DNA from: Aulosira sp. ZfuVER01
GTDB taxonomy: Bacteria > Cyanobacteriota > Cyanobacteriia > Cyanobacteriales > Nostocaceae
Reading direction: 5' to 3'
DNA length: 64,000 nucleotides
Assembly (NCBI GenBank): GCA_034530615.2
Contig: JAVRCV020000079.1
Coordinates: forward strand, 1-64,000
The position numbers and the translations under genes are program-made. The notes under the pieces are model-generated. The model was given only the letters and a program-made list of their open reading frames with translations, was not told the DNA's origin and did no database searches. Shown piece after piece: positions 29-15,814 of the stretch (position 1 is its first letter; each line of letters opens with the position of its first letter).

Positions 29-490
29 TCATTTACCTGCAATTGGCTGTAAATACATTCCACACAAGTGCAATTGCTCTAAAACCGGACGTGCAGCCGG
101 AATAACTCCTCGTTGTTTGGCAGTAATAACAATACCTAATGTCCCCCGTACAGGAATTCCTAAAGTGGTAGCACAACGACGGGCTGCTAAATCATCTAGA
201 ATTACTTCCGTCCCAGGATTTATATAGCCCCACGCCAATACAGCTGACTCACCTTGACCCAAATCCCAATTCTGAATCACATTTGGGGCTGGTGGTGTTT
301 CTTGTACAATCAACCAATCAGTATTTTTGAGCGCAACTGCTGTTACGTCTGTTTCCCCATACTCCTGAATTTCTGCGGCTACAGCGTCAGGAACAATAAT
401 TGATGGGCTAATTATCTGCAACAAATCGATAAAGCCAGCCTTGGTTAAAAAAATTAGTGGAGATGTGTTGATAGCAGGTAGTTCAGCCAC
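29..490 (-). CDS. PIN-domain protein (DUF3368-like), putative toxin; C-terminus appears replaced by repeat-derived sequence
   Basis: Motifs INTSPLI, LGQGESAVL, ILDDLAARR and GTLG are typical of DUF3368 PIN proteins; overlaps the UPF0175 gene by 8 bp. Confidence 0.85.
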   Translation of the reverse strand: MAELPAINTSPLIFLTKAGFIDLLQIISPSIIVPDAVAAEIQEYGETDVTAVALKNTDWLIVQETPPAPNVIQNWDLGQGESAVLAWGYINPGTEVILDDLAARRCATTLGIPVRGTLGIVITAKQRGVIPAARPVLEQLHLCGMYLQPIAGK

Positions 491-734
491 GGTTTAACTC
501 GCGCTGTAAATCATCAAGGTCAACAGCAAAGACATCTACTTGTTCGCGGGCTAGGACGGCTAGAAAGTCTCGGCGGTTTAACCCAGCAACATTGGCTGCT
601 TTCTCCATTGAGATTTCCTGCTTCTGATACCAGTAGATAGCAGCAGCAAGGCGCATATCGCGCACAAATTCTTCTGGAGTCAGGCGACGGGCGCTAAATA
701 CTTCTTCTGGCAGAGTAATTGTGACTGACGACAT
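483..734 (-). CDS. UPF0175 family protein, putative antitoxin
   Basis: 83 aa; AAIYWYQKQEISMEKAANVAGLNRRDF HTH signature; directly upstream of the PIN gene. Confidence 0.85.
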   Translation of the reverse strand: MSSVTITLPEEVFSARRLTPEEFVRDMRLAAAIYWYQKQEISMEKAANVAGLNRRDFLAVLAREQVDVFAVDLDDLQRELNRG

Positions 735-972
735 AAATTATGTTCTCAATGGTTAAGGCTCTTGAAGCTGCAATTAATTAATGATATCAACCATGTCTAC
801 TTGATAAAAAAGTATTCCTTTTTTTCCAGCCCCTGACTACCCTGTGGGAACGCTACCCTAAACTATGAGGGCGATATTTGGGGTCGTTATGGTGTTAAGT
901 TGTGGTTGTTGGCAAGTTTAGAAATTTGGTTGGAGGTGAATAGATAATCCTTATATAGTATTTGTAGTATTT

Positions 973-997
973 GTAGAGGGGCATTGCCCACCCTACG
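973..997. repeat. GTAG-type REP-like palindrome
   Basis: gtagaggggcattgcccaccctac, which reads GTAGGGTGGGCAATGCCC on the minus strand. Confidence 0.55.
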
Positions 998-1031
998 TAT
1001 GTTGTATTTGTTAGGAAATCTGAAAATCTTT

Positions 1032-1544
1032 ATGACAAAAAAACTGATACAGCTCTCATGCTTGTTAATTTGCTTGTGGTTGGGATTTCCGATTTTTGTT
1101 GCTTCCGCCGAAACTCCAGAAGAATGGGTAACTCTGGGAAAGCGAGTACATGGAGGTTTTGGCAGTTATATTGCTCTAGGAATCCGTATAGGATTAGATG
1201 CAATGCAGCGTCTTGATGCTAAACCACGCGACTTAGACGTTACTTACCAAGATGGTGCTAATACGGCCTGTCCTTGCGTTGCGGATGGGATTATGATTGC
1301 GACAGTCGCCACGCCGGGACAAAATTCTCTGCGGATTCTTCCCTCTAAAAGTAACTCTAGCAACTTTGGTATTGCGCTAATTAAGAATAAGAAAACTGTA
1401 AAAACACTGCGTTATGTAATACCAGCTACAGCTAGTTCTTTACTTGATAAGTGGAACCAGGATCTAAACCCTCGCCAGCGCTATGATGCAGTCATGAATA
1501 CATCTAGTGATTCTCTATTTCGTATTGAAAGTAACATGAAATAA
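1032..1544 (+). CDS. FmdE-family (formylmethanofuran dehydrogenase subunit E-like) protein with signal peptide
   Basis: HGGFGSYIALGIRIG and CPCVADGI...ATPG motifs; hydrophobic N-terminus ending ASA; ATG at 1032 preferred over the TTG at 984. Confidence 0.75.
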   Translation: MTKKLIQLSCLLICLWLGFPIFVASAETPEEWVTLGKRVHGGFGSYIALGIRIGLDAMQRLDAKPRDLDVTYQDGANTACPCVADGIMIATVATPGQNSLRILPSKSNSSNFGIALIKNKKTVKTLRYVIPATASSLLDKWNQDLNPRQRYDAVMNTSSDSLFRIESNMK

Positions 1545-1657
1545 GAAGCATTTCAATTTTGAAAAAATCTACTGAAATGATGCAAAAATCCTTTTAAACC
1601 CTCTTAACTTAGCGTTCTTTGCTTTCTTTGCGGTTCGTTCTTTCTTAATTTTGAAGC

Positions 1658-2956
1658 TCAACCGAAACTTTCGACAAAATAAATATCATTACCTGTATCG
1701 CCTACTAAAATCAAGCTACTATCATCAATTGCTAAATTTTGGCTACCAGTAATACCTCTTTGCAAAACTTTAATGATTCTTTGGGGAGTGAGAGATTCCA
1801 ATTCTACAAACTTTCCAGAATCCAACCATGCTAATTCTTCAGCAGTTAAATTCTGGCGAATTTCCCCAAACAAATCTTTAGCTGCTTGTGCTGAATCTGG
1901 AGAGGCTTGGATGAACATCCCCCGCTTAGTAGCAATAACTTGACGCGGTAATATACCAATATCGATAATCGTCACATTGCTATTGAGAAACCATTTAGGG
2001 CTGGTGCGGAGTTGATGAACTAAACTAATTCCTTTGGGACTGCAATCATGTAGTGCATATACTTTCAATTCCGGATTACGACGCAACATTTCCATTGTCG
2101 TGTCAAAGATACTTTGCGGATATCCAGTGACGCTGAGAATGGCACAGTTATTTTCAAAGTGGAAGTTATTAGATATTAATTGTTGAGCAATCGCAGTGCG
2201 ATCGCAAACTACTAATCTATCAAAACTGTAAGCAGTAACATCAGGATTGACTGTTACAGAGGCATTTTCTTCGCGCGCCGCAGGCAGAATTTTACTCACT
2301 GAACCATTGATTCTCTGCCAACGATTGAGCCATTCTTGAACCTGTACTTGTGTAATTAACAATTCCTGAACTACATCAACTCGAATTAGCTGTCTACTGC
2401 CTAAGTAGATTGATAACATTCCTGTGAGCACTACAACTACAAATGCCATGTATGATTTTAGGACAGATATACTCAAAAATATTCCTCCCACCAGAACGAT
2501 GGCTCCTGTGATTTGTAACATTCTGGCGCTCGTCTTTCTACCTATGCTGTTTAACTTACTAGATTGAGTATTTTTATATAAATAATATGTCGAACCTATT
2601 TGGTATACAGACCATACAATTAAAAAAGAACTACTTCCAAATATTTTTGAAAGTATAGTTCCAAAAAAACCTGTTACCCAAATAGTAAAGAATATATAGA
2701 TAATCAGAAAAAACCAGGTAAATGAATTTCGTTTCAGGCGCGCATCTAACAAATACAAAAGCTGTTTTGGTGTAAAAAATAATGTATTATTCGCAGAGAT
2801 ATCAGCTATAGCTTTGGCAAACATGGAGTCGGTAATTTTTACATTGCCCATAGCGGTAGGTTCAAATACAAATGGATGCCTGCATTGCATACACCGACCA
2901 TTATTAGCTGTTCTATCTCTTAGTTTATTGTCAGTTCCGCAGTTAATACATTTCAT
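1658..2956 (-). CDS. Zn-ribbon + ~4 TM + Spo11/TopoVI-A-like Toprim domain protein
   Basis: CxxC..CxxC at the N-terminus; TPKQLLY; hydrophobic segments; LVVCDRTAIAQQL, CAILSVTGYP, VYALHDCSPKG and GKFVELESL resemble TopoVI-A Toprim motifs. Confidence 0.65.
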   Translation of the reverse strand: MKCINCGTDNKLRDRTANNGRCMQCRHPFVFEPTAMGNVKITDSMFAKAIADISANNTLFFTPKQLLYLLDARLKRNSFTWFFLIIYIFFTIWVTGFFGTILSKIFGSSSFLIVWSVYQIGSTYYLYKNTQSSKLNSIGRKTSARMLQITGAIVLVGGIFLSISVLKSYMAFVVVVLTGMLSIYLGSRQLIRVDVVQELLITQVQVQEWLNRWQRINGSVSKILPAAREENASVTVNPDVTAYSFDRLVVCDRTAIAQQLISNNFHFENNCAILSVTGYPQSIFDTTMEMLRRNPELKVYALHDCSPKGISLVHQLRTSPKWFLNSNVTIIDIGILPRQVIATKRGMFIQASPDSAQAAKDLFGEIRQNLTAEELAWLDSGKFVELESLTPQRIIKVLQRGITGSQNLAIDDSSLILVGDTGNDIYFVESFG

Positions 2957-3033
2957 AATACTTCTAGTTTAGTTGTAATATTTTTCGTAAGGGCTATCAT
3001 TCGTAATTTGTTATGGCATTTTTGACGCTTGAC

Positions 3034-4221
3034 TTATTTTTCAATTACCTGATTCATTAACAAAACACTATAGTCTTCTCGCTTACGAATCAAACGATGT
3101 GTATGATTTTCTAAGAAAATTTCCGCAGGTTTAGGACGATGTAAAAAGTGAGAAGACATCGCATAACCATAAGCACCGACATCTAAAATGGCAAGAATAT
3201 CACCAATTTCTAAGGCTGGAAGTTGGCAATTTTTACCTAAATAATCTCTTGAGTAAGTCGTATTACCACAAACATCTGTTGGATAAATTCCCGTGTTCTC
3301 TCCTTTCTTCCATGTGATGATTTCTCGATAGCCACCATGTACAGCAGGAACTGAGAGATTAGCAACGGTGGTATCAACTCCCACAATCTGTTTTTCTGCT
3401 TGCCATTTTACAGATACAACTTGCGCTAACAAAGTACCACAACCTGCGATCGCAGCTCGTCCCGGTTCAATTACTAAATCAATTTTCCGCCCCAAAGCTG
3501 TAATTCGCTGTGTCAACTTTGCGCCAAACTCTTCCCAATCAAAAGCTACTCTACCGTGATGATAGGGATAGCCAAAGCCACCGCCAAAATCCAAATATTC
3601 CCAATCTGGTAACTTTTGCGCTGTCGCCAGCACAGTATCAATTACCTCGGTAAAAGCTTCTGTCGCATTAGTTCCAGTCCCCCGGTAAAAGTGCAACCCC
3701 CTGAGTTTCAATCCTGCTTGCTGAGTAATCGCCACTGCTGCGGAAAATTCCTCCGGATGTACACCAATGCGACTATCTCCAGTAAGTTCCGGTAAATTCA
3801 GCCGCAAACCCAGCCGAACTGATTCAATTTTGGATTGATAGACTTTGCAAAACAACTCCAGCTGATTAACACTGTCAAGATTGAGAGTAGTAACTCCCCA
3901 ATCCAAAACTTGAAGCATTTCATCTCGATTTAAATTACTGCCACTGTAAACAATATCACCAGGGTCAAAACCAGCTTGCAACCCCAGGTAAATATCTCCT
4001 GGTGTATTGGCGTGGAGTCCCCAGCCAGCAGCGCGAAAAATTTTGAGTAACGCAATATTCCCATTAGTAACGCTAGCAAAGTGAAATTGTGTGCGGGAAT
4101 AGGTGATGGCTTGAGTAATGCGGTTAATAGTTTGACGTAAGCGATCGCCATCATACACATAAAGCGGAGAACCGTAGATCTTTAGTAACTCCTGCGCCAA
4201 TTCTAAAGTTAAGCTTGCCAT
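3034..4221 (-). CDS. Diaminopimelate-decarboxylase-fold (PLP fold III) protein, non-canonical active site
   Basis: YGSPLYVYD, DFGGGFG, IEPGR and GAYG are conserved; FASVTN replaces FAxKAN and GNTTYSRD replaces GPxCESGD; ATG at 4221 overlaps the end of the upstream gene. Confidence 0.85.
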   Translation of the reverse strand: MASLTLELAQELLKIYGSPLYVYDGDRLRQTINRITQAITYSRTQFHFASVTNGNIALLKIFRAAGWGLHANTPGDIYLGLQAGFDPGDIVYSGSNLNRDEMLQVLDWGVTTLNLDSVNQLELFCKVYQSKIESVRLGLRLNLPELTGDSRIGVHPEEFSAAVAITQQAGLKLRGLHFYRGTGTNATEAFTEVIDTVLATAQKLPDWEYLDFGGGFGYPYHHGRVAFDWEEFGAKLTQRITALGRKIDLVIEPGRAAIAGCGTLLAQVVSVKWQAEKQIVGVDTTVANLSVPAVHGGYREIITWKKGENTGIYPTDVCGNTTYSRDYLGKNCQLPALEIGDILAILDVGAYGYAMSSHFLHRPKPAEIFLENHTHRLIRKREDYSVLLMNQVIEK

Positions 4222-6374
4222 CGCTTGTATTGTCTCCATAACCAACTAGGTAGCCAAAACGGATGATTAAGAGAATGTTTGCCTAGTTCTTCACCTAAAA
4301 TATGCGATCGCCAAAGTTGCCACATAATTAATAACCAAAGACTCTCACCAATCCGCCGCCCTTGAATAGTCCCTCCCAGTTCGCCTGTAACAATTTGTGC
4401 AGCTATTTGGGAAGAAAAACGGTTTTCAGCACTGAGTATACCTGGATTTAACCAGATACCTATATCGTGCCAAAACTCATTCAAACACCAGGAAGTTAAG
4501 GGAACACCCATACCCCGCTTTTGTCGCCAAACAATTTCCGGTGGTAGCCAATTTTCTACAGCCCGTTTGAGGATATATTTCTCACAAGCACCTTGTAAAC
4601 AGAGTTCACCAGATAAGCTAAACGTCCACTCTGCTAAAGGTATATCGCAAAAAGGCGATCGCACCCACAACCCATGCGCAAATCCCAAAGCAGTCGCACG
4701 AGGGTGGATATTTTGCGCCCCTTTCAGCATCAAGCTAGCGCGGCGGAGACGATGCAGCAAGGAAGGACAGCAAGTTGCATCCAGCGCCTCTAAAATCCAA
4801 TCTTGGGGATGTAAATTTTGTATCTGTGCGTAAACCTCTGATTGATAAATTTGCGATTCATACCCCCAAAGACGATGAAACGTGCGGAGATATTGCAGTA
4901 TAAAACTTTCTCCCGCCTGATAAATCCCCGCAGCAATTAAAGGCTTATTCGTCCACCCTGCAAATAATTGATCTCCACCTTCACCATTAAAAATTACACG
5001 AGTTTCCTGACTAGCTGTTTGCGCCAAGAGATACAAAGGAACAGTCACCCCATCACCAAAAGGTAAATCCAGTGCTTGTACAGCAGGAATTAAAGCCTTC
5101 TTAATTTCCTGGGGAGTCGCCGCCACTTTCACCAAGGGAATTTTGAGAAACTGTGCAACCTGTTCTGCATAAGGGAATTCTGGAATCCCAGCACCGCCAA
5201 AATCGAGAGTATAGGCGCGGACTTTCACCCCCGCTTGCACCAACAACGCCGCCACAATTGAAGAATCTAAGCCACCAGAGAGAAAAACTCCCACAGGTTC
5301 ATCTTTTAAATCAGCAATTTGCTGATGAATCGATGCTTTCAGGAGACTTTGCAATTGAGTAACGGCTGTAGTTTCATCTTTGATTTGTTCAGCCTGTTCC
5401 CGCCACGAATGAATACTTCGAGATTGCGGCTGACAGAGTTTACCCGATCCACAATTACCCTGCCAAATCAACTCAGTTCCCGCCGGGACTGCAAACACTT
5501 CATTAACAGGCGTTAGGGGAGTTGGGACGTAAGAAAAACAACTGTAACCATATAAGCCCGGAATGCTAACATCACGCTGTTGCAGAATCGGTAAAAGCAG
5601 TTGTAGCCGGGATGCAAACCAAATCACCTCTCCTTGCTGAGTCCAGTATAAAGGCACTCTGCCAAAAGCTTCTCTCGCCAAAATCAGGCAGTGATTTTCC
5701 CCTATACTTACCCAAGCATCCGGCGTAGAAGATAATCCTGACGCGGAAATAGCAGCAATTGTATTGTCTTGAGATTGAGAATTTTTATTTATTCCAAGAT
5801 GAACAACATTCCAAAGGAGTTGATTTTCCTTTTGGAAAAAATGCTGTGTAGACGGTGGAGACGTTGCAGACAAATTAGTTAACAACGCCGTCAATTCACG
5901 TTGAGAACCGTAACCCCAATAGCCTAGAATTGCAGGCTGTTGGACTGAGGAGAAGGAGGACAAGGGGGACAGGGGAGACAAGGGAGACAAAGGGACAAAT
6001 TGCGTTGTGAATTTATAATATCTTTTGAGCCTTTGAGCCTGAATGTTGAGCCTTTTTGCTTGGAAGTTGAACCTTTGAACCTGGAAGTTGAGCCTTTGAG
6101 CCTTTGAGCTTGACTGTTGCACCTTTTTGCTTGGACGTTGCGCCTTTGAGCTTGAACGTTGCACCTTTAAGCCTGACAGTTGCACCTTTTTGCTTGGACG
6201 TTGCGCCTTTAAGCTTGAACGTTGCACCTTTGAGCCTGGACGTTGCACCTTTTTGCTTGGACGTTGCGCCTTTGAGGCTGACAGTTGCACCTTTTTGCTT
6301 GGACGTTGCGCCTTTAAGCCTGAACGCTGCACTTTTGAGCCTAGAAGTTGCACTTTTAAGCCTGAACATTGCAC
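4209..6374 (-). CDS. Asparagine synthetase (AsnB)-like ATP-dependent amide ligase; true start uncertain, the ORF is extended through repeats
   Basis: REAFGRVPLYW, PP-loop FLSGGLDSS, NGEGGDQLFAG, RSPFCD and QKRGM; protein-like sequence begins at about 5945 and the first ~145 codons are repeat-derived. Confidence 0.8.
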   Translation of the reverse strand: MQCSGLKVQLLGSKVQRSGLKAQRPSKKVQLSASKAQRPSKKVQRPGSKVQRSSLKAQRPSKKVQLSGLKVQRSSSKAQRPSKKVQQSSSKAQRLNFQVQRFNFQAKRLNIQAQRLKRYYKFTTQFVPLSPLSPLSPLSSFSSVQQPAILGYWGYGSQRELTALLTNLSATSPPSTQHFFQKENQLLWNVVHLGINKNSQSQDNTIAAISASGLSSTPDAWVSIGENHCLILAREAFGRVPLYWTQQGEVIWFASRLQLLLPILQQRDVSIPGLYGYSCFSYVPTPLTPVNEVFAVPAGTELIWQGNCGSGKLCQPQSRSIHSWREQAEQIKDETTAVTQLQSLLKASIHQQIADLKDEPVGVFLSGGLDSSIVAALLVQAGVKVRAYTLDFGGAGIPEFPYAEQVAQFLKIPLVKVAATPQEIKKALIPAVQALDLPFGDGVTVPLYLLAQTASQETRVIFNGEGGDQLFAGWTNKPLIAAGIYQAGESFILQYLRTFHRLWGYESQIYQSEVYAQIQNLHPQDWILEALDATCCPSLLHRLRRASLMLKGAQNIHPRATALGFAHGLWVRSPFCDIPLAEWTFSLSGELCLQGACEKYILKRAVENWLPPEIVWRQKRGMGVPLTSWCLNEFWHDIGIWLNPGILSAENRFSSQIAAQIVTGELGGTIQGRRIGESLWLLIMWQLWRSHILGEELGKHSLNHPFWLPSWLWRQYKRWQA

Positions 6375-6405
6375 CTTTAAGCCTGAACGTTACGCCTTTG
6401 ATACT
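6024..6405. repeat. 21-bp tandem array, ~18 units (GTTGCACCTTT core + variable 10-mer)
   Basis: Units such as gttgcaccttt-ttgcttggac, gttgcgccttt-gagcttgaac and gttgcaccttt-aagcctgaca read directly. Confidence 0.95.
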
Positions 6406-6449
6406 AAAACTTCGAGCTTGACTTTTAACCAATGCCCCATGCCCAATAA

Positions 6450-7070
6450 CTACTTAACCTCAAACCTTTGATCGCTAATTTGCCGATCTTCAAGGAACAT
6501 CTGCACTTGCCAATTACCAACCGGTGCAGTCGCACCAATAGTATAACGACAGTAAGTATCCCAAATAGATGTATTAATATCACGAGTTTGATAACGGTTT
6601 TGCTTAACAATTTGACCGTTGGGATCGATCCAATTACAAGACAGAGATAGCTTTTTACCCACAGGTGCATCCTTCAAAGTCACACGGTAAAAAACTTCTG
6701 GACTGTTTTGCCGAGAGATACTATTTAAATTACCGCTATCCTGAACTAAAGTAATGCGGTCTTGCTGGGTAGAAACACGAGAAATTAGTGAATTATTTTG
6801 TTGCATAAAAAACACTGTAGATGCGATCGCAACTACTACAGCAGCAACTACTCCAGAAATAATCCAGCGATTTCGGCGTTCCTGTACCTTTAATGCTTGT
6901 CGCCGCCGCAACTGAATCAATGCTTCATCGAGTAACTCCGGTGGTAAATTCAACTCCCGTAAAATTTCCTGAACTTGCTGTTTGTCGAGTTCCGCTTCCT
7001 GACGTATTTGCAGCTCTTGTACTTCATCGATTATTTGTGATAATTGCTCTTGAGTTAATCGCTCCGTCAT
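6450..7070 (-). CDS. Single-TM protein with C-terminal Ig-like domain (DUF3859-like)
   Basis: N-terminal helical region, one TM (WIISGVVAAVVVAIASTVFF), CNWIDPNG and GNWQVQMFLE beta-rich domain. Confidence 0.65.
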   Translation of the reverse strand: MTERLTQEQLSQIIDEVQELQIRQEAELDKQQVQEILRELNLPPELLDEALIQLRRRQALKVQERRNRWIISGVVAAVVVAIASTVFFMQQNNSLISRVSTQQDRITLVQDSGNLNSISRQNSPEVFYRVTLKDAPVGKKLSLSCNWIDPNGQIVKQNRYQTRDINTSIWDTYCRYTIGATAPVGNWQVQMFLEDRQISDQRFEVK

Positions 7071-7339
7071 AATTAATACAACTCCTGTAAATAACTTCAG
7101 TCTCTACTTTTTCAAGCTAGACCTTCATGTAATAAATTACACGCTGATAGCATCACAACTCTCTTCTCTCTGTGCCTTTGTGTCTCTATGCTAAAAAATT
7201 TGAAACCACAGAGATACAAAGACGAAAGCAGTTGAGTTGGCAGCTTTGCCGACTTGAGCAAACTGCCCGTACAAAGTACTTTTAAGACAAACCAAGGCAT
7301 GAAAATCAATACCCAATGCCCCATTTTTAAGCTAAATAT

Positions 7340-8818
7340 ATGTCAAACTCGCTCTCAGCATCAACGGCAGGACTGGCAATTGTAGACAAAGCACGGTTGC
7401 GTCTTGGTTGGACAAAAACCAGTACAGCGCGTTGGTGGCAAGATGCCCACACTTCTAGAGCTACATTACGGCGATTCTGGCAGGGCGATCGCATTCAGCG
7501 AGAAATCTTCATCGCTATCTGTCAAGCTGTTGGTATTACTAACTGGGAAGCGATCGCAGATTCTCCCGATCTCAACTCAGAAATTATCGCAGACATCCCT
7601 ACACCTTACCTTGACTGGAATGAAGCCCCAGATGTCGAAAGTTTTTATGGGCGAAATCAGGAATTAACGCAGTTAGAACAATGGATTGAGAGTGGCTGTA
7701 AGTTAGTCATGATTGTTGGTATTGCTGGGATCGGCAAAACTGCTCTAGCACTTGCTTTAATAGATAGAATTCAATCAAAATTCGATAGCTTGATTTGGAA
7801 ATCTCTTCATTCTGCACCATCTTTAAATTCTTTACTGGATAGCTTGCTGCATAACTTTGATGAAGGCGCTGTTCGCGATCTCCCCCAACTCATACACCAC
7901 CTGCAACAACGTCGCTGTCTATTAATACTTGATGGGTTAGAAGCAGATTTGAATAACTATAGTCAATTTATCCAAAAAATTAGCCGCGGCCATCAAAGTT
8001 GCATTCTCATCACCAGCCGCGAACAACCAAAGGCGATTGAAATCGACACAAAAACAGTTCGCTGTTTAAACCTCAAGGGTTTGCCAAAAACAGAGGCTTT
8101 AGAATTATTGCAATCGAGAGGATTTACAGGTAAAGAACTAGGACTATCAGCCTTAATTCAACTTTATCGCGGCAATCCCTTAGCGCTGAAACTGGTAACG
8201 CCATTGATTCAGTTGGTGTTTGCTGGGAATGTGGCTGGATTTCTCACTCAAAATACTTTGGTGATTGGCGATCGCTTACGAGTTATTCTGAAACAACAAT
8301 TCGAGCAACTTGGCGATTTAGAACAAGATATTCTTTATTGGTTGGCAATTTGGCAAGAACCAGTCTCTTTCTCTCGCTTGCAAACTCATCTATTAATAGC
8401 CATCGATCCGGCTACGGTATTAGAGGCAATTGTCGCGTTAGAAAGGCGATCGCTTTTGGAAAAATGGATCGGTATAGGGGAAATCTCATTTAGCTTGCAA
8501 CCTTTGGTGATGAAAGTCGTTACCGATGAATTGGTAGAACAAACTGCGCAAGAGATTCAACAGGTAGTGCAGAGTAATGATATCCGTCATTTTAAAATAT
8601 TGCGCACCCATTGGTTACTGCGACCTGGTACTGATGATATTGCAGGCGATCGCATTTTGTCTCAACTGCGCGATCGTTTGTGGCGGTTGTATGGTGCAAC
8701 TCTACCACAAACCTTGGAGCAGATGTTGTTACTTTTAAAGGATAAATCTCCGTTGGCAACTGGTTATATCGCTTGTAATGTAGCGGTACTCCTTAAGCAG
8801 TTGAGGATACCTGGATGA
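7340..8818 (+). CDS. HTH + NB-ARC/STAND NTPase without C-terminal repeat domain
   Basis: HTH-like N-terminus (TSRATLRRFWQG), FYGR, Walker A GIAGIGKT, Walker B LLILDG, LITSR and GNPLAL. Confidence 0.85.
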   Translation: MSNSLSASTAGLAIVDKARLRLGWTKTSTARWWQDAHTSRATLRRFWQGDRIQREIFIAICQAVGITNWEAIADSPDLNSEIIADIPTPYLDWNEAPDVESFYGRNQELTQLEQWIESGCKLVMIVGIAGIGKTALALALIDRIQSKFDSLIWKSLHSAPSLNSLLDSLLHNFDEGAVRDLPQLIHHLQQRRCLLILDGLEADLNNYSQFIQKISRGHQSCILITSREQPKAIEIDTKTVRCLNLKGLPKTEALELLQSRGFTGKELGLSALIQLYRGNPLALKLVTPLIQLVFAGNVAGFLTQNTLVIGDRLRVILKQQFEQLGDLEQDILYWLAIWQEPVSFSRLQTHLLIAIDPATVLEAIVALERRSLLEKWIGIGEISFSLQPLVMKVVTDELVEQTAQEIQQVVQSNDIRHFKILRTHWLLRPGTDDIAGDRILSQLRDRLWRLYGATLPQTLEQMLLLLKDKSPLATGYIACNVAVLLKQLRIPG

Positions 8819-9187: not shown

Positions 9188-12100
9188 ATGACTATGGCAA
9201 CTGAACAGTTAATTAAAGAAAACGACAATTTAGATTTAAAACAGCTATTAAGAATTCTAAATGCTGTCAAAAAAGGCGATTTTTCTGCTCGGATGCCCAT
9301 AGATCAAACAGGCATAGCCGGGAAAATCTCCGATACCCTTAACGACATTATTGAGCAGAATGAGCGCATGGCAGCAGAGCTACAGCGCATCGGTAATGTT
9401 GTTGGTAAAGATGGTAAGGTTTCAGAACGCGCTTCTTTAGGAAATGTTCGCGGTTCTTGGTTAAGTTGTGTTAATTCTGTTAACACATTAATTACGGATT
9501 TAGTCCAGCCAACAGCAGAAACTACTCGCGTAATTAGGGCTGTAGCTAATGGTGATTTATCCCAGACGATCGCACCAGAAATTGAAGGCAGACCCCTCAA
9601 AGGAGAGTTTCTCCAAACTGCCAACATTGTCAACACAATGGTAGATCGGCTTGGCTCCTTTGCATCGGAAGTAACCAGGGTTGCCCGGGAAGTGGGAACC
9701 GAAGGTAAGCTGGGTGTACAAGCGCAAGTTAGCGGTGTAGCGGGTACGTGGAAAGATTTGACCGATAACGTTAACTTGATGGCGGGTAATCTTACCGGAC
9801 AAGTGCGGAACATTGCCGAAGTTGCAACTGCGATCGCAAATGGCGACCTCTCGAAGAAAATTACAGTTAATGTCAAAGGCGAAATTCTCGAGTTGAAAAA
9901 CACCGTCAACACCATGGTGGATCAACTTAACTCCTTTGCCTCAGAAGTAACCAGGGTTGCCCGGGAAGTGGGAACCGAAGGTAAGTTAGGCGTACAAGCA
10001 GAAGTGCGCGGTGTGGCTGGTACGTGGAAAGACTTGACCGATAACGTGAACTTGATGGCAGGAAATTTGACTGCGCAAGTACGTAATATTGCGGAAGTAA
10101 CAACAGCGGTAGCGAATGGCGACCTCTCGAAGAAAATTACTGTAGATGTCAAGGGCGAGATTTTAGAACTGAAAAACACCGTCAATATCATGGTGGATCA
10201 ACTCAACTCCTTTGCATCAGAAGTAACCAGGGTTGCCCGAGAGGTGGGTGCAGAAGGAAAACTCGGCGGTCAAGCGGAAGTGAAGGGCGTGGCGGGTACG
10301 TGGAAAGACCTCACCGACAGCGTAAACTTCATGGCAGGCAGTTTGACAGCCCAGGTGCGGAACATCGCGGAAGTGACAACGGCGGTGGCGAATGGCGACC
10401 TTTCCAAGAAAATCACTGTGGATGTGAAAGGTGAAATTTTAGAGTTGAAAAACACGATCAACACGATGGTGGATCAACTCAACTCCTTTGCCTCAGAAGT
10501 AACACGGGTGGCGAGAGAGGTGGGAACGGAAGGAAAACTGGGCGTACAAGCAGAAGTGCGAGGGGTAGCGGGTACGTGGAAAGACCTCACCGACAATGTA
10601 AACCTGATGGCGGGGAATCTTACCGGACAGGTGCGGAACATTGCGGAAGTGACAACGGCGGTGGCGAACGGCGACCTCTCGAAGAAAATCACTGTGGATG
10701 TCAAGGGCGAAATTTTGGAGTTGAAAAACACCGTTAATATCATGGTGGATCAACTTAACTCTTTTGCATCAGAAGTAACCAGGGTTGCCCGAGAGGTGGG
10801 TGCAGAAGGAAAACTCGGCGGTCAAGCGGAAGTGAAGGGCGTGGCGGGTACGTGGAAAGACCTCACCGACAGCGTAAACTTCATGGCAGGCAGTTTGACA
10901 GCCCAGGTGCGGAACATCGCAGAAGTAACAACAGCGGTGGCAACCGGCGACCTTTCCAAGAAAATCACTGTGGATGTGAAAGGCGAAATTCTGGAGTTAA
11001 AAAACACGATCAACACAATGGTGGATCAACTCAACTCCTTCGCCTCAGAAGTAACCAGAGTTGCCCGAGAGGTGGGAAGTGAAGGAAAATTAGGCGTACA
11101 AGCCGAAGTGCGTGGGGTGGCAGGTACGTGGAAAGACCTCACCGACAGCGTGAACTTCATGGCAGGCAGTTTGACAGCCCAAGTACGGAACATCGCGGAA
11201 GTGACAACGGCGGTGGCGAACGGCGACCTTTCTAAGAAAATCACCGTGGATGTGCGGGGCGAAATTTTGGAGTTGAAAAATACCATCAATACAATGGTGG
11301 ATCAACTGAGTTCCTTTGCATCGGAAGTAACTAGGGTTGCCCGAGAGGTGGGAACGGAAGGGAAATTAGGCGTACAAGCCGAGGTGCGAGGTGTAGCGGG
11401 TACGTGGAAGGATTTGACTGGTGCGGTGAATATGATGGCGGGTAATCTGACCGACCAGGTACGGAACATCGCCGAAGTTGCAACTGCGATCGCCAACGGC
11501 GACCTCTCAAAGAAAATCACCGTGCAAGTTAAAGGTGAAATTCTCGAGTTGAAAAACACGATCAACATCATGGTGGATCAGCTCAACTCCTTCGCCTCAG
11601 AAGTAACCAGGGTGGCGCGAGAAGTAGGAAGTGAAGGAAAACTGGGCGTACAAGCAGATGTGCGCGGTGTGGCGGGTACGTGGAAAGACCTCACCGACAG
11701 CGTGAACTTCATGGCGGGTAGTTTGACGGCCCAGGTACGGAACATCGCCGCTGTGACAACGGCGGTGGCAAATGGCGACCTTTCTAAGAAAATTTCTGTG
11801 GATGTCAAAGGTGAAATTTTGGAGTTAAAAAACACCGTCAATACGATGGTGGATCAACTCAACTCCTTCGCCTCAGAAGTAACGCGGGTGGCACGAGAGG
11901 TGGGAACTGAAGGAAAATTAGGCGTACAAGCCGAGGTGAAGGGAGTCGCGGGTACGTGGAAAGACCTCACCGACAGCGTGAACTTCATGGCGGGAAGCTT
12001 GACGGCACAGGTGCGGAACATCGCGGAAGTGACAACGGCGGTGGCGAACGGCGACCTTTCCAAGAAAATCACTGTGGATGTGAAAGGCGAAATTCTGGAG

Positions 12101-15100
12101 TTGAAAAACACGATCAACACAATGGTGGATCAACTTAACTCCTTTGCCTCAGAAGTAACCAGGGTTGCCCGGGAGGTGGGAACCGAAGGTAAACTGGGCG
12201 TGCAAGCCTACGTCCGCGGGGTCGCGGGTACGTGGAAAGATTTGACCGACAATGTAAACTCAATGGCGGGGAACCTGACAGCCCAGGTGCGGAACATTGC
12301 GGAAGTGACGAAGGCGGTGGCGAACGGCGACCTCTCGAAAAAAATCACCGTGGATGTGCGGGGTGAAATTTTGGAGTTGAAAGACACCATCAATACAATG
12401 GTGGATCAGCTAAGTTCCTTTGCCTCAGAAGTAACGCGGGTGGCGCGGGAGGTGGGAACGGAAGGAAAATTAGGCGGTCAAGCGCAAGTGCAAGGCGTAG
12501 CGGGAACGTGGAAAGATTTGACCGACAATGTGAACTCGATGGCGGGTAACTTAACAGCCCAGGTGCGAGGTATCGCCAGAGTTGTAACGGCGGTGGCGAA
12601 TGGGGACTTGAAACGCAAATTAATGCTGGATGCTAAGGGAGAAATTGAAACTTTAGCAGAGACCATCAACGAAATGATTGACACCCTTGCCACCTTTGCC
12701 AATCAGGTAACTACAGTGGCGCGGGAAGTGGGAATTGAAGGAAAGCTAGGCGGTCAAGCTAAGGTACCTGGTGCGGCGGGAACCTGGAAAGATTTGACAG
12801 ACAACGTGAACGAACTGGCTGCAACTCTCACCACCCAGCTAAGAGCGATCGCAGAAGTGGCAACAGCGGTAACAAAAGGCGATCTAACTCGTTCGATTGC
12901 GGTGGAAGCTTTAGGGGAAGTAGCGATCCTTAAAGACAACATCAACCAGATGATCGCTAACCTGCGAGAGACAACGCAGAAAAATACCGAACAAGACTGG
13001 TTAAAAACTAACCTCGCCAAGTTTACCCGAATGCTGCAAGGTCAGCGCGATTTGGAAACTGTATCCAAATTAATTCTCTCCGAACTTGCACCCCTGGTAG
13101 GAGCGCAACATGGCGTATTCTACATGATGGAAAGCCCAGAGAATCAAGCCTATCTCAAACTACTGAGTAGCTATGCTTACCGCGAACGTAAACATTTAGC
13201 TAACCGCTTCCACATGGGTGAAGGTTTGGTAGGACAATGCGCTTTAGAAAAAGAGCGAATTCTGCTCACAGATGTACCGGGTGATTATGTCAAAATTAGC
13301 TCTGGTTTAGGAGAATCCGCGCCACTCAATGCGGTTGTTTTACCTGTATTGTTTGAAGGGCAAGTAACGGCGGTGATTGAATTAGCTTCCTTCCGCCGCT
13401 TTAGCGAGATTCATTTAACCTTCTTCGACCAACTCACTGAAAGTATTGCGATCGTCTTAAATACGATCGCGGCTTCGATGCGGACTGAAGAATTGCTCAA
13501 GCAGTCGCAATCTTTGGCAGAAGAACTGCAAACCCAGCAAAACGAACTGAGAGAAACCAACAAGCGTCTAGAACAGCAAGCCCAATCACTCAAAGCTTCC
13601 GAAGATTTACTCAGAGGACAGCAAGAAGAACTGCAACAAACCAACGCGGAATTAGAAGAAAAAGCCGAGTTGCTGGCACTGCAAAAGAAAGAAGTCGAGC
13701 GTAAAAATCTAGAAATTGAACAAGCAAGAAAGTCTTTGGAAGAGAAAGCAGAACAACTAGCCCTCTCATCTAAATATAAGTCTGAGTTTCTGGCGAATAT
13801 GTCCCACGAACTGCGGACACCGCTAAATAGCTTGTTAATTTTGGCTCGGCTATTAGCAGATAACATTGAAGGCAATCTCACCAGTAAGCAAATTGAATAT
13901 AGCCAGACAATTTACTCAGCAGGTACTGACTTGTTGACGTTGATTAATGACATTTTGGATCTGGCGAAAATCGAATCTGGAACTATGTCAATTGATCTGC
14001 ACCAGATGTTATTTTCCGAGTTGGGCGATCAACTCGAGCGCACCTTTGGGCAAATCGCCCAGAATAAAGGACTCAACTTTACAATTGACTTGGCTCCCGA
14101 ATTACCCAAAACCCTATACACCGATAGCAAACGCTTACAACAAGTACTGAAGAATTTACTTTCCAATGCCTTTAAATTTACAGAACGTGGAGAGGTAAGC
14201 TTGCGGGTTGAGGTGGCTAAAGAAGGTTGGAGCGTCTCTCAAGAAAGCTTGAATCGCGCCCAAACTGTGATTGCTTTCTCGGTTAGCGATACAGGTATTG
14301 GGATTGCGCCAGAAAAACAAAAAGTAATTTTTGAAGCTTTCCAACAAGCTGATGGTAGTACGAGTAGAAAATACGGCGGTACAGGATTAGGCTTATCAAT
14401 TAGCCGCGAAATTGCCCGCTTGTTTGGTGGCGAAATCAAACTTGTTAGTCACCCCAGTCAAGGAAGTACTTTTACTTTCTACTTACCGCAAACGAGTCCA
14501 GAGTTACGTGGGTTAAGTCCTGAGACTTTAACACCAAGACCAATTTCCCTCTCCAACTCTAATTCTCTCAAGCCTCAGTTGCCATTAACTAGTCTCAACT
14601 CCTCACCCCTGAATGACGATCGCGCTATTCTCGCAGACGACGATCGCGTGCTGCTAATTGTGGAAGATGACATCAACTTCGCCCGTATCCTCCTAGATAT
14701 GGCGCGACAGCAGGGTTTTAAGGTAATCACCGCCCAAAACGGCAGTATCGGCCTCACCCTAGCACAGCAATTCCAGCCTTCCGCAATTTTATTAGATATC
14801 CGCTTGCCAGAGATGGATGGCTGGACGGTGCTAGATCGGCTGAAACATAACCCCCATACCCGTCACATCCCTGTACATATTATGACGGTTGAGGAAGGGC
14901 GACAACGCGGACTGCAACTCGGAGCGATCGCCTATCTGCAAAAGCCCTTAACTAGCGAGACAATTTCCGATGCCTTAACTAAAATTAAAGGCTTTATCGA
15001 ACGGCGAGTGAAAAGCCTGCTGGTAGTGGAAGATGATGATACCCAACGCAACAGCATTATCGAATTAATTGGTAACAGTGACGTAACCACCACGGCGGTA

Positions 15101-15814
15101 GGTACAGGTGCAGAAGCCTTGGAAGCAATTCGCAATCAGTATTTTGATTGCCTTGTCCTCGATTTAGGACTACCAGATATGAGTGGTTTTGAATTGATCG
15201 AGCAGATTAAGCAGCTACCCAATGGTGAATCTTTACCTGTAATTGTTTATACTGGGCAAGAACTTAACAGAACACAAGAAACCGAACTGCGGCGGTTAGC
15301 GGATACGATTATCGTCAAAGATGTGCGATCGCCCGAACGTCTTTTAGATGAAACCGCATTATTTTTACACCGAGTCCAAGCAAATTTACCTGCACCCAAA
15401 CGAGAAATCCTCGAACAGCTACACGCTAGAGACTACTTACTCACAGGTAAGAAAGTGCTAATTGTAGACGACGATGTGCGTAATATCTTTGCCTTAACAA
15501 GTATGCTAGAGCGTTATCAAATGCAGGTGGTATACGCAGAGAATGGGAGAGAAGGTATTGCCGTTTTAGAAAAGACACCCGATATTGATATTGTTTTGAT
15601 GGACGTAATGATGCCCGAAATGGACGGTTACGAAACAACACGTTTAATCCGCCAGAACAATAAATTACGAGCCTTGCCGATCGTGGCACTCACAGCTAAA
15701 GCCATGCAAGGCGATCGCGAAAAATGCATTGAAGCCGGCGCATCCGACTACATCACCAAACCTGTAGATACAGAACAATTGCTTTCTTTATTGCGCGTTT
15801 GGCTATATAGATAG
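9188..15814 (+). CDS. Poly-HAMP hybrid histidine kinase (HAMP array-GAF-coiled coil-HisKA-HATPase-3 REC)
   Basis: About 12-13 tandem 92-aa units ([18 protein letters not shown]), H-box [24 protein letters not shown], three receiver domains. Confidence 0.95.
9600..12960 (+). repeat. 276-bp intragenic tandem repeat encoding di-HAMP units
   Basis: gaagtaaccagggttgcc-like motif recurs every 276 bp. Confidence 0.95.

Follow-up and report, generated by a model that had tools for sequence, protein, structure and literature searches.

The window analyzed here is a 64,000-nucleotide stretch of the cyanobacterium Aulosira sp. ZfuVER01 (contig JAVRCV020000079.1, positions 1 to 64,000), and our subject is a cluster of four minus-strand genes near its start. 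The cluster encodes Duf, a DUF3859-like single-pass membrane protein (6450..7070); AsnA, an AsnB-like ATP-dependent amide ligase with a dead glutaminase domain and an intact PP-loop (4209..5990); a LysA-like protein of fold type III that has no Schiff-base lysine (3034..4221); and Top, a membrane protein with a zinc ribbon, a winged-helix part, 2–4 inserted membrane helices, a degenerate Toprim domain and an acidic tail ending in ESFG (1658..2956). The ATG of the LysA-like gene (4221) lies 13 nt within the 3′ end of AsnA (stop at 4209), 77 bp separate the LysA-like gene from Top, and 269 bp separate Duf from a divergent plus-strand NB-ARC gene (7340..8818). This layout is the one drawn in the initial annotation. 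The 721-aa open reading frame (ORF) of the AsnB-like gene, like a separate 139-aa repeat ORF, reads through an array of 21-bp tandem repeats between Duf and AsnA (6025..6401) that is open in several frames, and we rejected both as real proteins. The true start of AsnA is probably a TTG near 5963–5990 (at 5990, 5981 or 5963). The array is a dispersed genomic repeat outside the system, with copies on at least five other contigs (C28, C34, C38, C41 and C48) and a shorter version at L113, the locus of the closest named relative. Promoter and terminator scans of the locus gave results at or below chance.

All four genes are real, and together with a fifth they make up a conserved system common to several bacterial phyla. 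When 301 genomes of the phylum were searched with the LysA-like protein as query, a close family stood apart from canonical LysA. Its 40 surrounding regions were supplemented with 80 loci from a GTDB scan (the best 80 of at least 560 relatives), and merging of six duplicate loci left 108 family loci, with synteny counted on the 74 that extend at least 5 kb on each side. At these 74 distinct loci, the LysA-like gene is accompanied by Top at 72, by AsnA at 70, by Duf at 59 and by a second AsnB-like gene, AsnB-B, which is about 30% identical to AsnA, at 47. The gene set stays together although its order is reshuffled: in cyanobacteria, Duf, AsnA, the LysA-like gene and Top follow one another and converge on AsnB-B, whereas the records from Myxococcota, Acidobacteriota, Armatimonadota and Rubrivivax mostly have the order LysA-like, AsnA, Top, AsnB-B. 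No sixth gene is common to the phyla, except for a TrkA-N/Ion_trans_2 channel gene that lies near the system at six loci (acidobacterial records and one cyanobacterial). Conservation across cyanobacteria and other phyla upholds the suggestion of the initial annotation that these genes form an amide-forming module tied to membrane proteins; AsnB-B, the C-terminal Phe-Gly (FG) tail, the Topo VI-A-like N-terminal half of Top and the second layout described below were missing from it.

The window itself holds only a copy of the last 29 codons of AsnB-B, its 3′ end (858..947, plus strand), and the intact gene of this genome lies at the end of another contig (C81, positions 172–1893, minus strand). 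Because the segments of that contig and of the window are contiguous in L113, AsnB-B probably adjoins the cluster across the assembly break, with a toxin–antitoxin pair and fmdE in between; comparison of related loci led us to reject fmdE as a member. Inheritance of the genes was followed in 151 genomes of the family, using presence thresholds of 1e-5 for Top and 1e-100 for both AsnB-B and the LysA-like gene. Top was found in 55 genomes, AsnB-B in 53, both in 52 and neither in 95, related genomes not being independent, so that 52 of 56 genomes with at least one of the two genes carry the pair, even when the two lie megabases apart. The LysA-like gene is present in 50 genomes, 48 of which have both Top and AsnB-B. 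Top is broken by stops in two genomes, G402 and G372, and AsnB-B is broken in the former and was not found in the latter, which suggests joint decay.

Top resembles subunit A of topoisomerase VI (Topo VI-A), most clearly in its Toprim half. It scores 27.7 bits against PF21180 (cut-off 24.1), and in its AlphaFold model (pLDDT 93) the Toprim half matches Topo VI-A, MksG and Spo11: the top seven rows of a Foldseek search are all Topo VI-A/Spo11 (E 1e-3 to 1e-2), and residues 226–429, to which the structure match is confined, reach Z 11.8 to 1d3y (rmsd 4.3 over 172 residues) and 9.1 to 8b7f. Alignment by HHalign to bacterial Topo VI-A proteins (8 of 10 loci used; probability 75%, E 2.5e-5) sets Tyr68 of Top against the Tyr of the catalytic motif (TKRDAYY), with low column confidence at that position; the type II profile gave no alignment. 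PF04406 (5Y-CAP) had no match in the Top proteins scanned, and 21 related and 5 myxobacterial genomes yielded none either. A profile search collected 1,499 Top representatives, and residues were counted on 129 of them. Tyr68 is kept in 115, an acid at the Glu position in 113 (the Glu being mostly Asp) and the first Toprim Asp in 100, and the second Asp is kept in 5, being mostly Ser or Thr, so that the Topo VI-A metal site (Glu plus DxD) is lacking; in the Top of the window, VE reads CD and DxD reads DCS. Variation is far smaller at the YSFD, NNFHFENNCA and His303 positions than at these catalytic ones. The winged-helix region is split by an insert of 28 to 212 residues with 13% identity and 0 to 6 predicted transmembrane (TM) segments. 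Top was also seen in tandem fusions and in arrays of up to five copies (P0121 and P0151; L039, L040, L084, L134, L137 and L192), which suggest dimers or specificity variants.

AsnA and AsnB-B retain the ATP-binding motifs of asparagine synthetase B (AS-B) and have lost its nucleophile for glutamine. The SGGxDSS and GE[GN]GD motifs and the lysine of RxKxGM are invariant or nearly so in both, and neither has the N-terminal Cys nucleophile: the proteins have MSG[IL], which is the AsnA start where that start is kept (11 cases), or no such motif. The glutamate of GADE is Gln or Pro in both. By what is established for AS-B, such changes point to ligases that adenylate without glutamine and act on something other than aspartate. 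Further lysines are conserved in each of the two (GWTxKP or GGPKN; KG) and would fit an acidic peptide as substrate. AsnA scores 177.8 bits against TIGR01536, short of the cut-off of 267, and 49 bits against the lasso cyclase model NF033535, for which the cut-off is 525; no lasso B protease, RiPP recognition element or precursor was found among the conserved neighbors, in a clustering of ORFs of at least 80 aa. A quick tree placed AsnA and AsnB-B in separate clades with mirrored subtrees and nested the type II ligases (see below) within AsnB-B; with only two outgroups, it does not bear on a common clade for the two ligases.

Top is predicted to bind the AsnB-B of this genome through its most conserved patch (ipSAE 0.76, against 0.00 for the best control), a mark attained by 116 of 157 pairs with solved structures and by 2 of 215 mismatched ones, counts that hold only roughly for our own alignments. 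Contact agreement between model runs is at least 83% and partner pLDDT at least 77. The predicted contacts run between Top 242–246, 261–273 and 280–296 and ligase 359–385, so that the interface spans YSFD and NNFHFENNCA on Top and the helix after the invariant GGPKN loop on the ligase. Residues of Top that are at least 90% conserved make up 11 of 36 positions at the predicted interface and 23 of 211 elsewhere. AsnA keeps a helix similar to the docking helix of AsnB-B and may dock at the same site.

The LysA-like protein has the fold of diaminopimelate (DAP) decarboxylase (fold type III; TM-score 0.86 to 3vab for the model of a homologue, L062) and scores below every NCBIfam cut-off. In all 127 sequences (120 distinct), the lysine that binds pyridoxal 5′-phosphate (PLP) is replaced by Val (V59 in ORF numbering), the catalytic Cys by Thr and the stacking His by Tyr. 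The contacts to the cofactor phosphate and pyridine are kept, as are R148, GGG, EPGR, GAY, Y359 and the dimer salt-bridge residues, and more than 12 polar residues at active-site positions are newly invariant, among them H78, N80, D84, R159, T190, N296, R333 and H366. The only invariant lysine, K280, is one that we take, from ornithine decarboxylase, to form the dimer salt bridge. This pattern speaks more for an enzyme that binds the cofactor and has new chemistry than for decay, the alternative being a sensing pseudo-enzyme. The reaction may proceed through a direct external aldimine or through pyridoxamine 5′-phosphate (PMP) with a His as acid-base, as in the PMP chemistry of ColD/E1. We rejected the idea of a paralogue for lysine synthesis, a canonical LysA being encoded on contig C55. 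No fused forms were found among 34 longer matches, which is weak evidence, and apparent fusions at two loci (L063 and L080) look like a deletion or frameshifts. With the LysA-like, AsnB-like and Toprim changes all family-wide, the altered active sites reported in the initial annotation for three members hold beyond this genome. Its DUF3859 label for Duf falls short of the Pfam threshold: the match covers 58 residues (148–205) and scores 19.9 bits, below the cut-off of 24. Duf has a helical N-terminus, a TM segment and a beta-rich C-terminal domain with two Cys, and a single query recovered no homologue of it from five myxobacterial genomes.

The C-terminus of Top is FG in 118 of the 129 representatives and in 110 of 113 genomic copies, and follows an acidic, Gly/Ser-rich linker that is only 15% identical and modeled at low confidence. 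The same ending recurs in a second, type II layout, which came to light at a Streptomyces locus reached through a search of plasmids and which was sampled by a metagenome scan with AsnB-B (best 80 of 367 relatives). Type II loci, from Streptomyces and metagenome contigs, have the order cupin, one to three Top genes without the FG tail, a tail protein of about 180 aa and AsnB-B, with neither AsnA nor the PLP enzyme. The cupin is present at 13 loci, and AsnB-B is followed by an ATP-grasp-like gene at 10, the product resembling glutathione and glutathionylspermidine synthetases (atlas cosine 0.95–0.96), and by an aldehyde dehydrogenase gene at 2. The type II Top proteins read T.xQLYYE in 18 of 18 cases, a count that is not independent, these proteins having been chosen by the pattern T..QL.YE. 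The tail protein is a small membrane protein whose hydrophobic segment is rich in glycine and whose tail is acidic. An FG-tail protein stands directly before AsnB-B in 22 of 24 type II loci, all 22 ending in FG, as do 119 of the 120 homologues listed, which are mostly from Streptomyces. Because type II does without AsnA and the PLP enzyme, the core of the system consists of Top, AsnB-B and the FG tail, and AsnA, the LysA-like protein and Duf are type I accessories.

At about even confidence, we read these data as a membrane-associated system for modifying the C-terminus of a protein, in which a docked ligase joins the FG tail to a small amine. Top would be a Topo VI-A-derived, membrane-anchored scaffold whose Toprim face has turned into a docking site for AsnB-B and perhaps also for AsnA, and docking would place the ligase beside the acidic Gly/Ser-rich tail ending in Phe-Gly-COOH. 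The tail would be carried by Top itself in type I, the layout of this window, and by the separate small membrane protein in type II. The ligase, unable to use glutamine but with its ATP site, would most likely adenylate the terminal carboxylate of the tail, and the activated tail would then be joined to an outside amine, for which an amino acid or polyamine is our tentative candidate. Making or tailoring the amine, or extending the adduct, could fall in type I to the second ligase and to the PLP/PMP enzyme that lacks the lysine; in type II, the cupin and the ATP-grasp ligase or aldehyde dehydrogenase would take the place of the type I accessories. That the tail is a substrate of the ligase is the step we hold to be likely, because it explains most simply why two unrelated carriers both keep a free terminal Gly, almost always beside a glutamine-independent ligase that is predicted to dock on Top; a role in envelope or developmental signaling is only faintly indicated. 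Several observations weigh against this reading: 11 of the 129 Top representatives lack the terminal FG; two type II loci (L178 and L183) have Top and AsnB-B with no FG protein nearby; the ligase side of the predicted interface is not more conserved than the rest of the domain (8 of 31 versus 111 of 323 positions); the FG tail is not among the confident contacts in the ATP-free model, in which unnamed residues are uncertain rather than excluded; and no protease or transporter was found conserved near the system.

The same tail would also suit conjugation of the ubiquitin or Atg8 kind, perhaps in defense, with the terminal Gly passed to a lipid amine or to a lysine of a host or phage protein, and with an effector in the Topo VI-A-like part that can still cut DNA. 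The FG tail may be likened to processed Atg8 ends and to the conjugation systems of CBASS and Bil, and the terminal Gly that hardly varies at the end of a disordered acidic arm, the retention of Tyr68 and of two acidic positions in the Topo VI-A register, the patchy presence (55 of 151 genomes), the tandem Top paralogues with variable TM inserts, and the Septu and PDC-S70 cassettes between Top and AsnB-B all point that way. However, the core genes have only weak matches in PADLOC 2023 (QueC PP-loop 2e-5, MkoB 0.01), and only 13 of 126 flanking proteins match it at 1e-25, a count taken without a baseline that includes several generic proteins (kinase, cyclase). A DNA-cutting Top also sits poorly with the loss of the second Toprim Asp and with catalytic positions that vary when the docking patch hardly does. 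Moreover, no conserved E2-like protein or isopeptidase and no phage copies of the system were found. We consider this explanation unlikely, and still less likely its bolder form, in which the AsnB-fold ligase is itself a bacterial ubiquitin/Atg8-like tagger that transfers the FG tail of Top to a protein, lipid or polyamine, with processing of the adduct by the lysine-free PLP/PMP enzyme and gating of a residual tyrosine-based DNA activity by conjugation. Between these two in our estimation, and also unlikely, stands a small-molecule pathway, in which a free amide metabolite is the membrane-side product of both ligases and the PLP/PMP enzyme, and the unmodified tail serves only to bind or activate the ligase. 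The nearest solved relatives of the ligases (the hydroxyamidotransferase 7ylz, AS-B, CarA and beta-lactam synthetase) speak for such a pathway, as do the added ATP-grasp or aldehyde dehydrogenase genes of type II and the tail-less loci L178 and L183; it leaves unexplained the free terminal Gly on two unrelated carriers, and no conserved transporter or precursor genes accompany the system.

Loss of the catalytic Lys, Cys and His from the LysA-like protein also allows a signal relay with a pseudo-enzyme, in which that protein is no more than a sensor of lysine, DAP or polyamines, Duf is a sensor of the periplasm, and Top acts as a membrane-bound DNA-binding regulator switched by modification of its tail. 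The zinc ribbon and winged helix of Top, the single-pass topology of Duf and the TrkA-N potassium-channel gene near six loci accord with it, and operons of a GspS-like ATP-grasp protein, a K+ channel and DUF350 are tied to envelope stress in PMC11237479. The newly invariant polar residues of the active site look more like new chemistry than decay, and no regulated target gene is conserved, which makes the relay improbable. Control by the divergent NB-ARC gene, labeled in the initial annotation as an HTH-STAND NTPase that perhaps regulates the module, is highly improbable. Its NB-ARC domain is clear (E 4e-13), but the domain scan returned no helix-turn-helix (HTH) family, and apart from the divergent layout, 269 bp away from Duf, little connects it with the cluster: no full-length STAND gene occurs at 114 related loci (there is one 211-aa partial match), L113 has none next to the cluster, and about 10 other paralogues are encoded in the genome of the window. 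As a conserved feature, STAND control is refuted, and we regard the gene as a chance neighbor outside the system.

The junction between Top and AsnB-B looks like an insertion hotspot. A DUF3368/UPF0175 pair that matches PADLOC PDC-S70 lies there in the window (29–734, minus strand) and is partly present at the same place in L113, and Septu (PtuA/PtuB) is found between convergent Top and AsnB-B at five loci (L041:11385–13228, L044, L045, L069 and L122). On contig C81, DUF350, FemAB-like and spermidine-synthase-like genes lie 4–7 kb upstream of AsnB-B (L233:5664–9000) and are not conserved elsewhere; the spermidine-synthase-like protein has a Gly/Ser-rich tail. A small protein of repeated IDGQRP-type motifs, without a Pfam match, adjoins AsnB-B on the same contig (L233:2016–2483). 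A named set of the system's proteins (WP_013335013, WP_013335012, WP_041934270, WP_013335014 and WP_013335016) is encoded on a plasmid of Gloeothece verrucosa PCC 7822, and on the Gloeothece plasmid a TIGR04222 membrane protein is encoded about 3.5 kb upstream of the system (L152:1–769). Downstream in the window (9188–15814, plus strand), a gene for a 2208-aa poly-HAMP-type hybrid histidine kinase is followed by a CheR-like gene; both labels rest on sequence motifs, and the pair appears ordinary.

Each component has better-known relatives from which it departs. In LysW/AmCP, ThiS/MoaD/CysO, Pup, Atg8, CBASS Cap2 and Bil, attachment takes place at an acidic or flexible arm whose terminal residues are conserved. 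The parallel is one of analogy only, since the ligases of such carrier and conjugation proteins have ATP-grasp, E1 or glutamine-synthetase-like folds and no ubiquitin fold was seen here. Topo VI-A, Spo11 and the Wadjet protein MksG/JetD share with Top the Toprim fold and, at low column confidence, a TxxxxxY helix in register, whereas Top adds a zinc ribbon, a TM insert and the FG tail, has lost the second Asp, and has no Topo VI-B or SMC partner among its conserved neighbors. The LysA-like protein has fold type III, GGG, EPGR, GAY and the dimer salt-bridge residues in common with the LysA, BtrK, FslC and TIGR03099 decarboxylases but lacks the Schiff-base Lys and catalytic Cys, and its substrate pocket is rebuilt. 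Among ligases, the asparagine synthetase-like enzymes of RiPPs, peptides made on the ribosome and modified after translation, come closest: according to PMC13060819, TsrC and ScdTA amidate the C-termini of peptides and PesC nitrilates them, and these enzymes and the lasso cyclases are PF00733 ligases that adenylate a peptide carboxylate, with ATP motifs that are kept here. Compared with the enzymes described there, the present system has no short precursor, leader peptidase, exporter or Cys1, has two paralogous ligases with predicted docking on a Toprim domain, and has the tail of a membrane protein as its proposed substrate. The GspS-like ATP-grasp/DUF350/K+-channel operons likewise set an amide ligase beside uncharacterized membrane proteins, and an ATP-grasp or channel gene occurs at some of our loci; the main text of PMC11237479 mentions neither asparagine synthetase nor Toprim, and PspA and DUF350 are not conserved here.

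In its proposed working, the system is akin to the C-terminal amidation of RiPPs or to carrier-tail chemistry, but it falls outside AsnB, the lasso cyclases, LysA, proteins with the Topo VI-A metal site and the known defense systems. RefSeq-derived annotation calls the proteins hypothetical, decarboxylase or asparagine synthase-related, and no description of the gene set was found in the literature searched, most subscription journals and the supplements of PMC11237479 and PMC13060819 lying outside that search. The system is real, conserved and apparently undescribed, and its mechanism is proposed here from comparison and modeling. If the proposal is correct, modification of a protein C-terminus would be widespread in cyanobacteria, myxobacteria, acidobacteria and streptomycetes, and the Topo VI-A/Spo11 fold would have been reused as a membrane scaffold that recruits enzymes. 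A large fold-type-III family held under strong selection without its PLP lysine would, in turn, represent either new cofactor chemistry or a conserved pseudo-enzyme.

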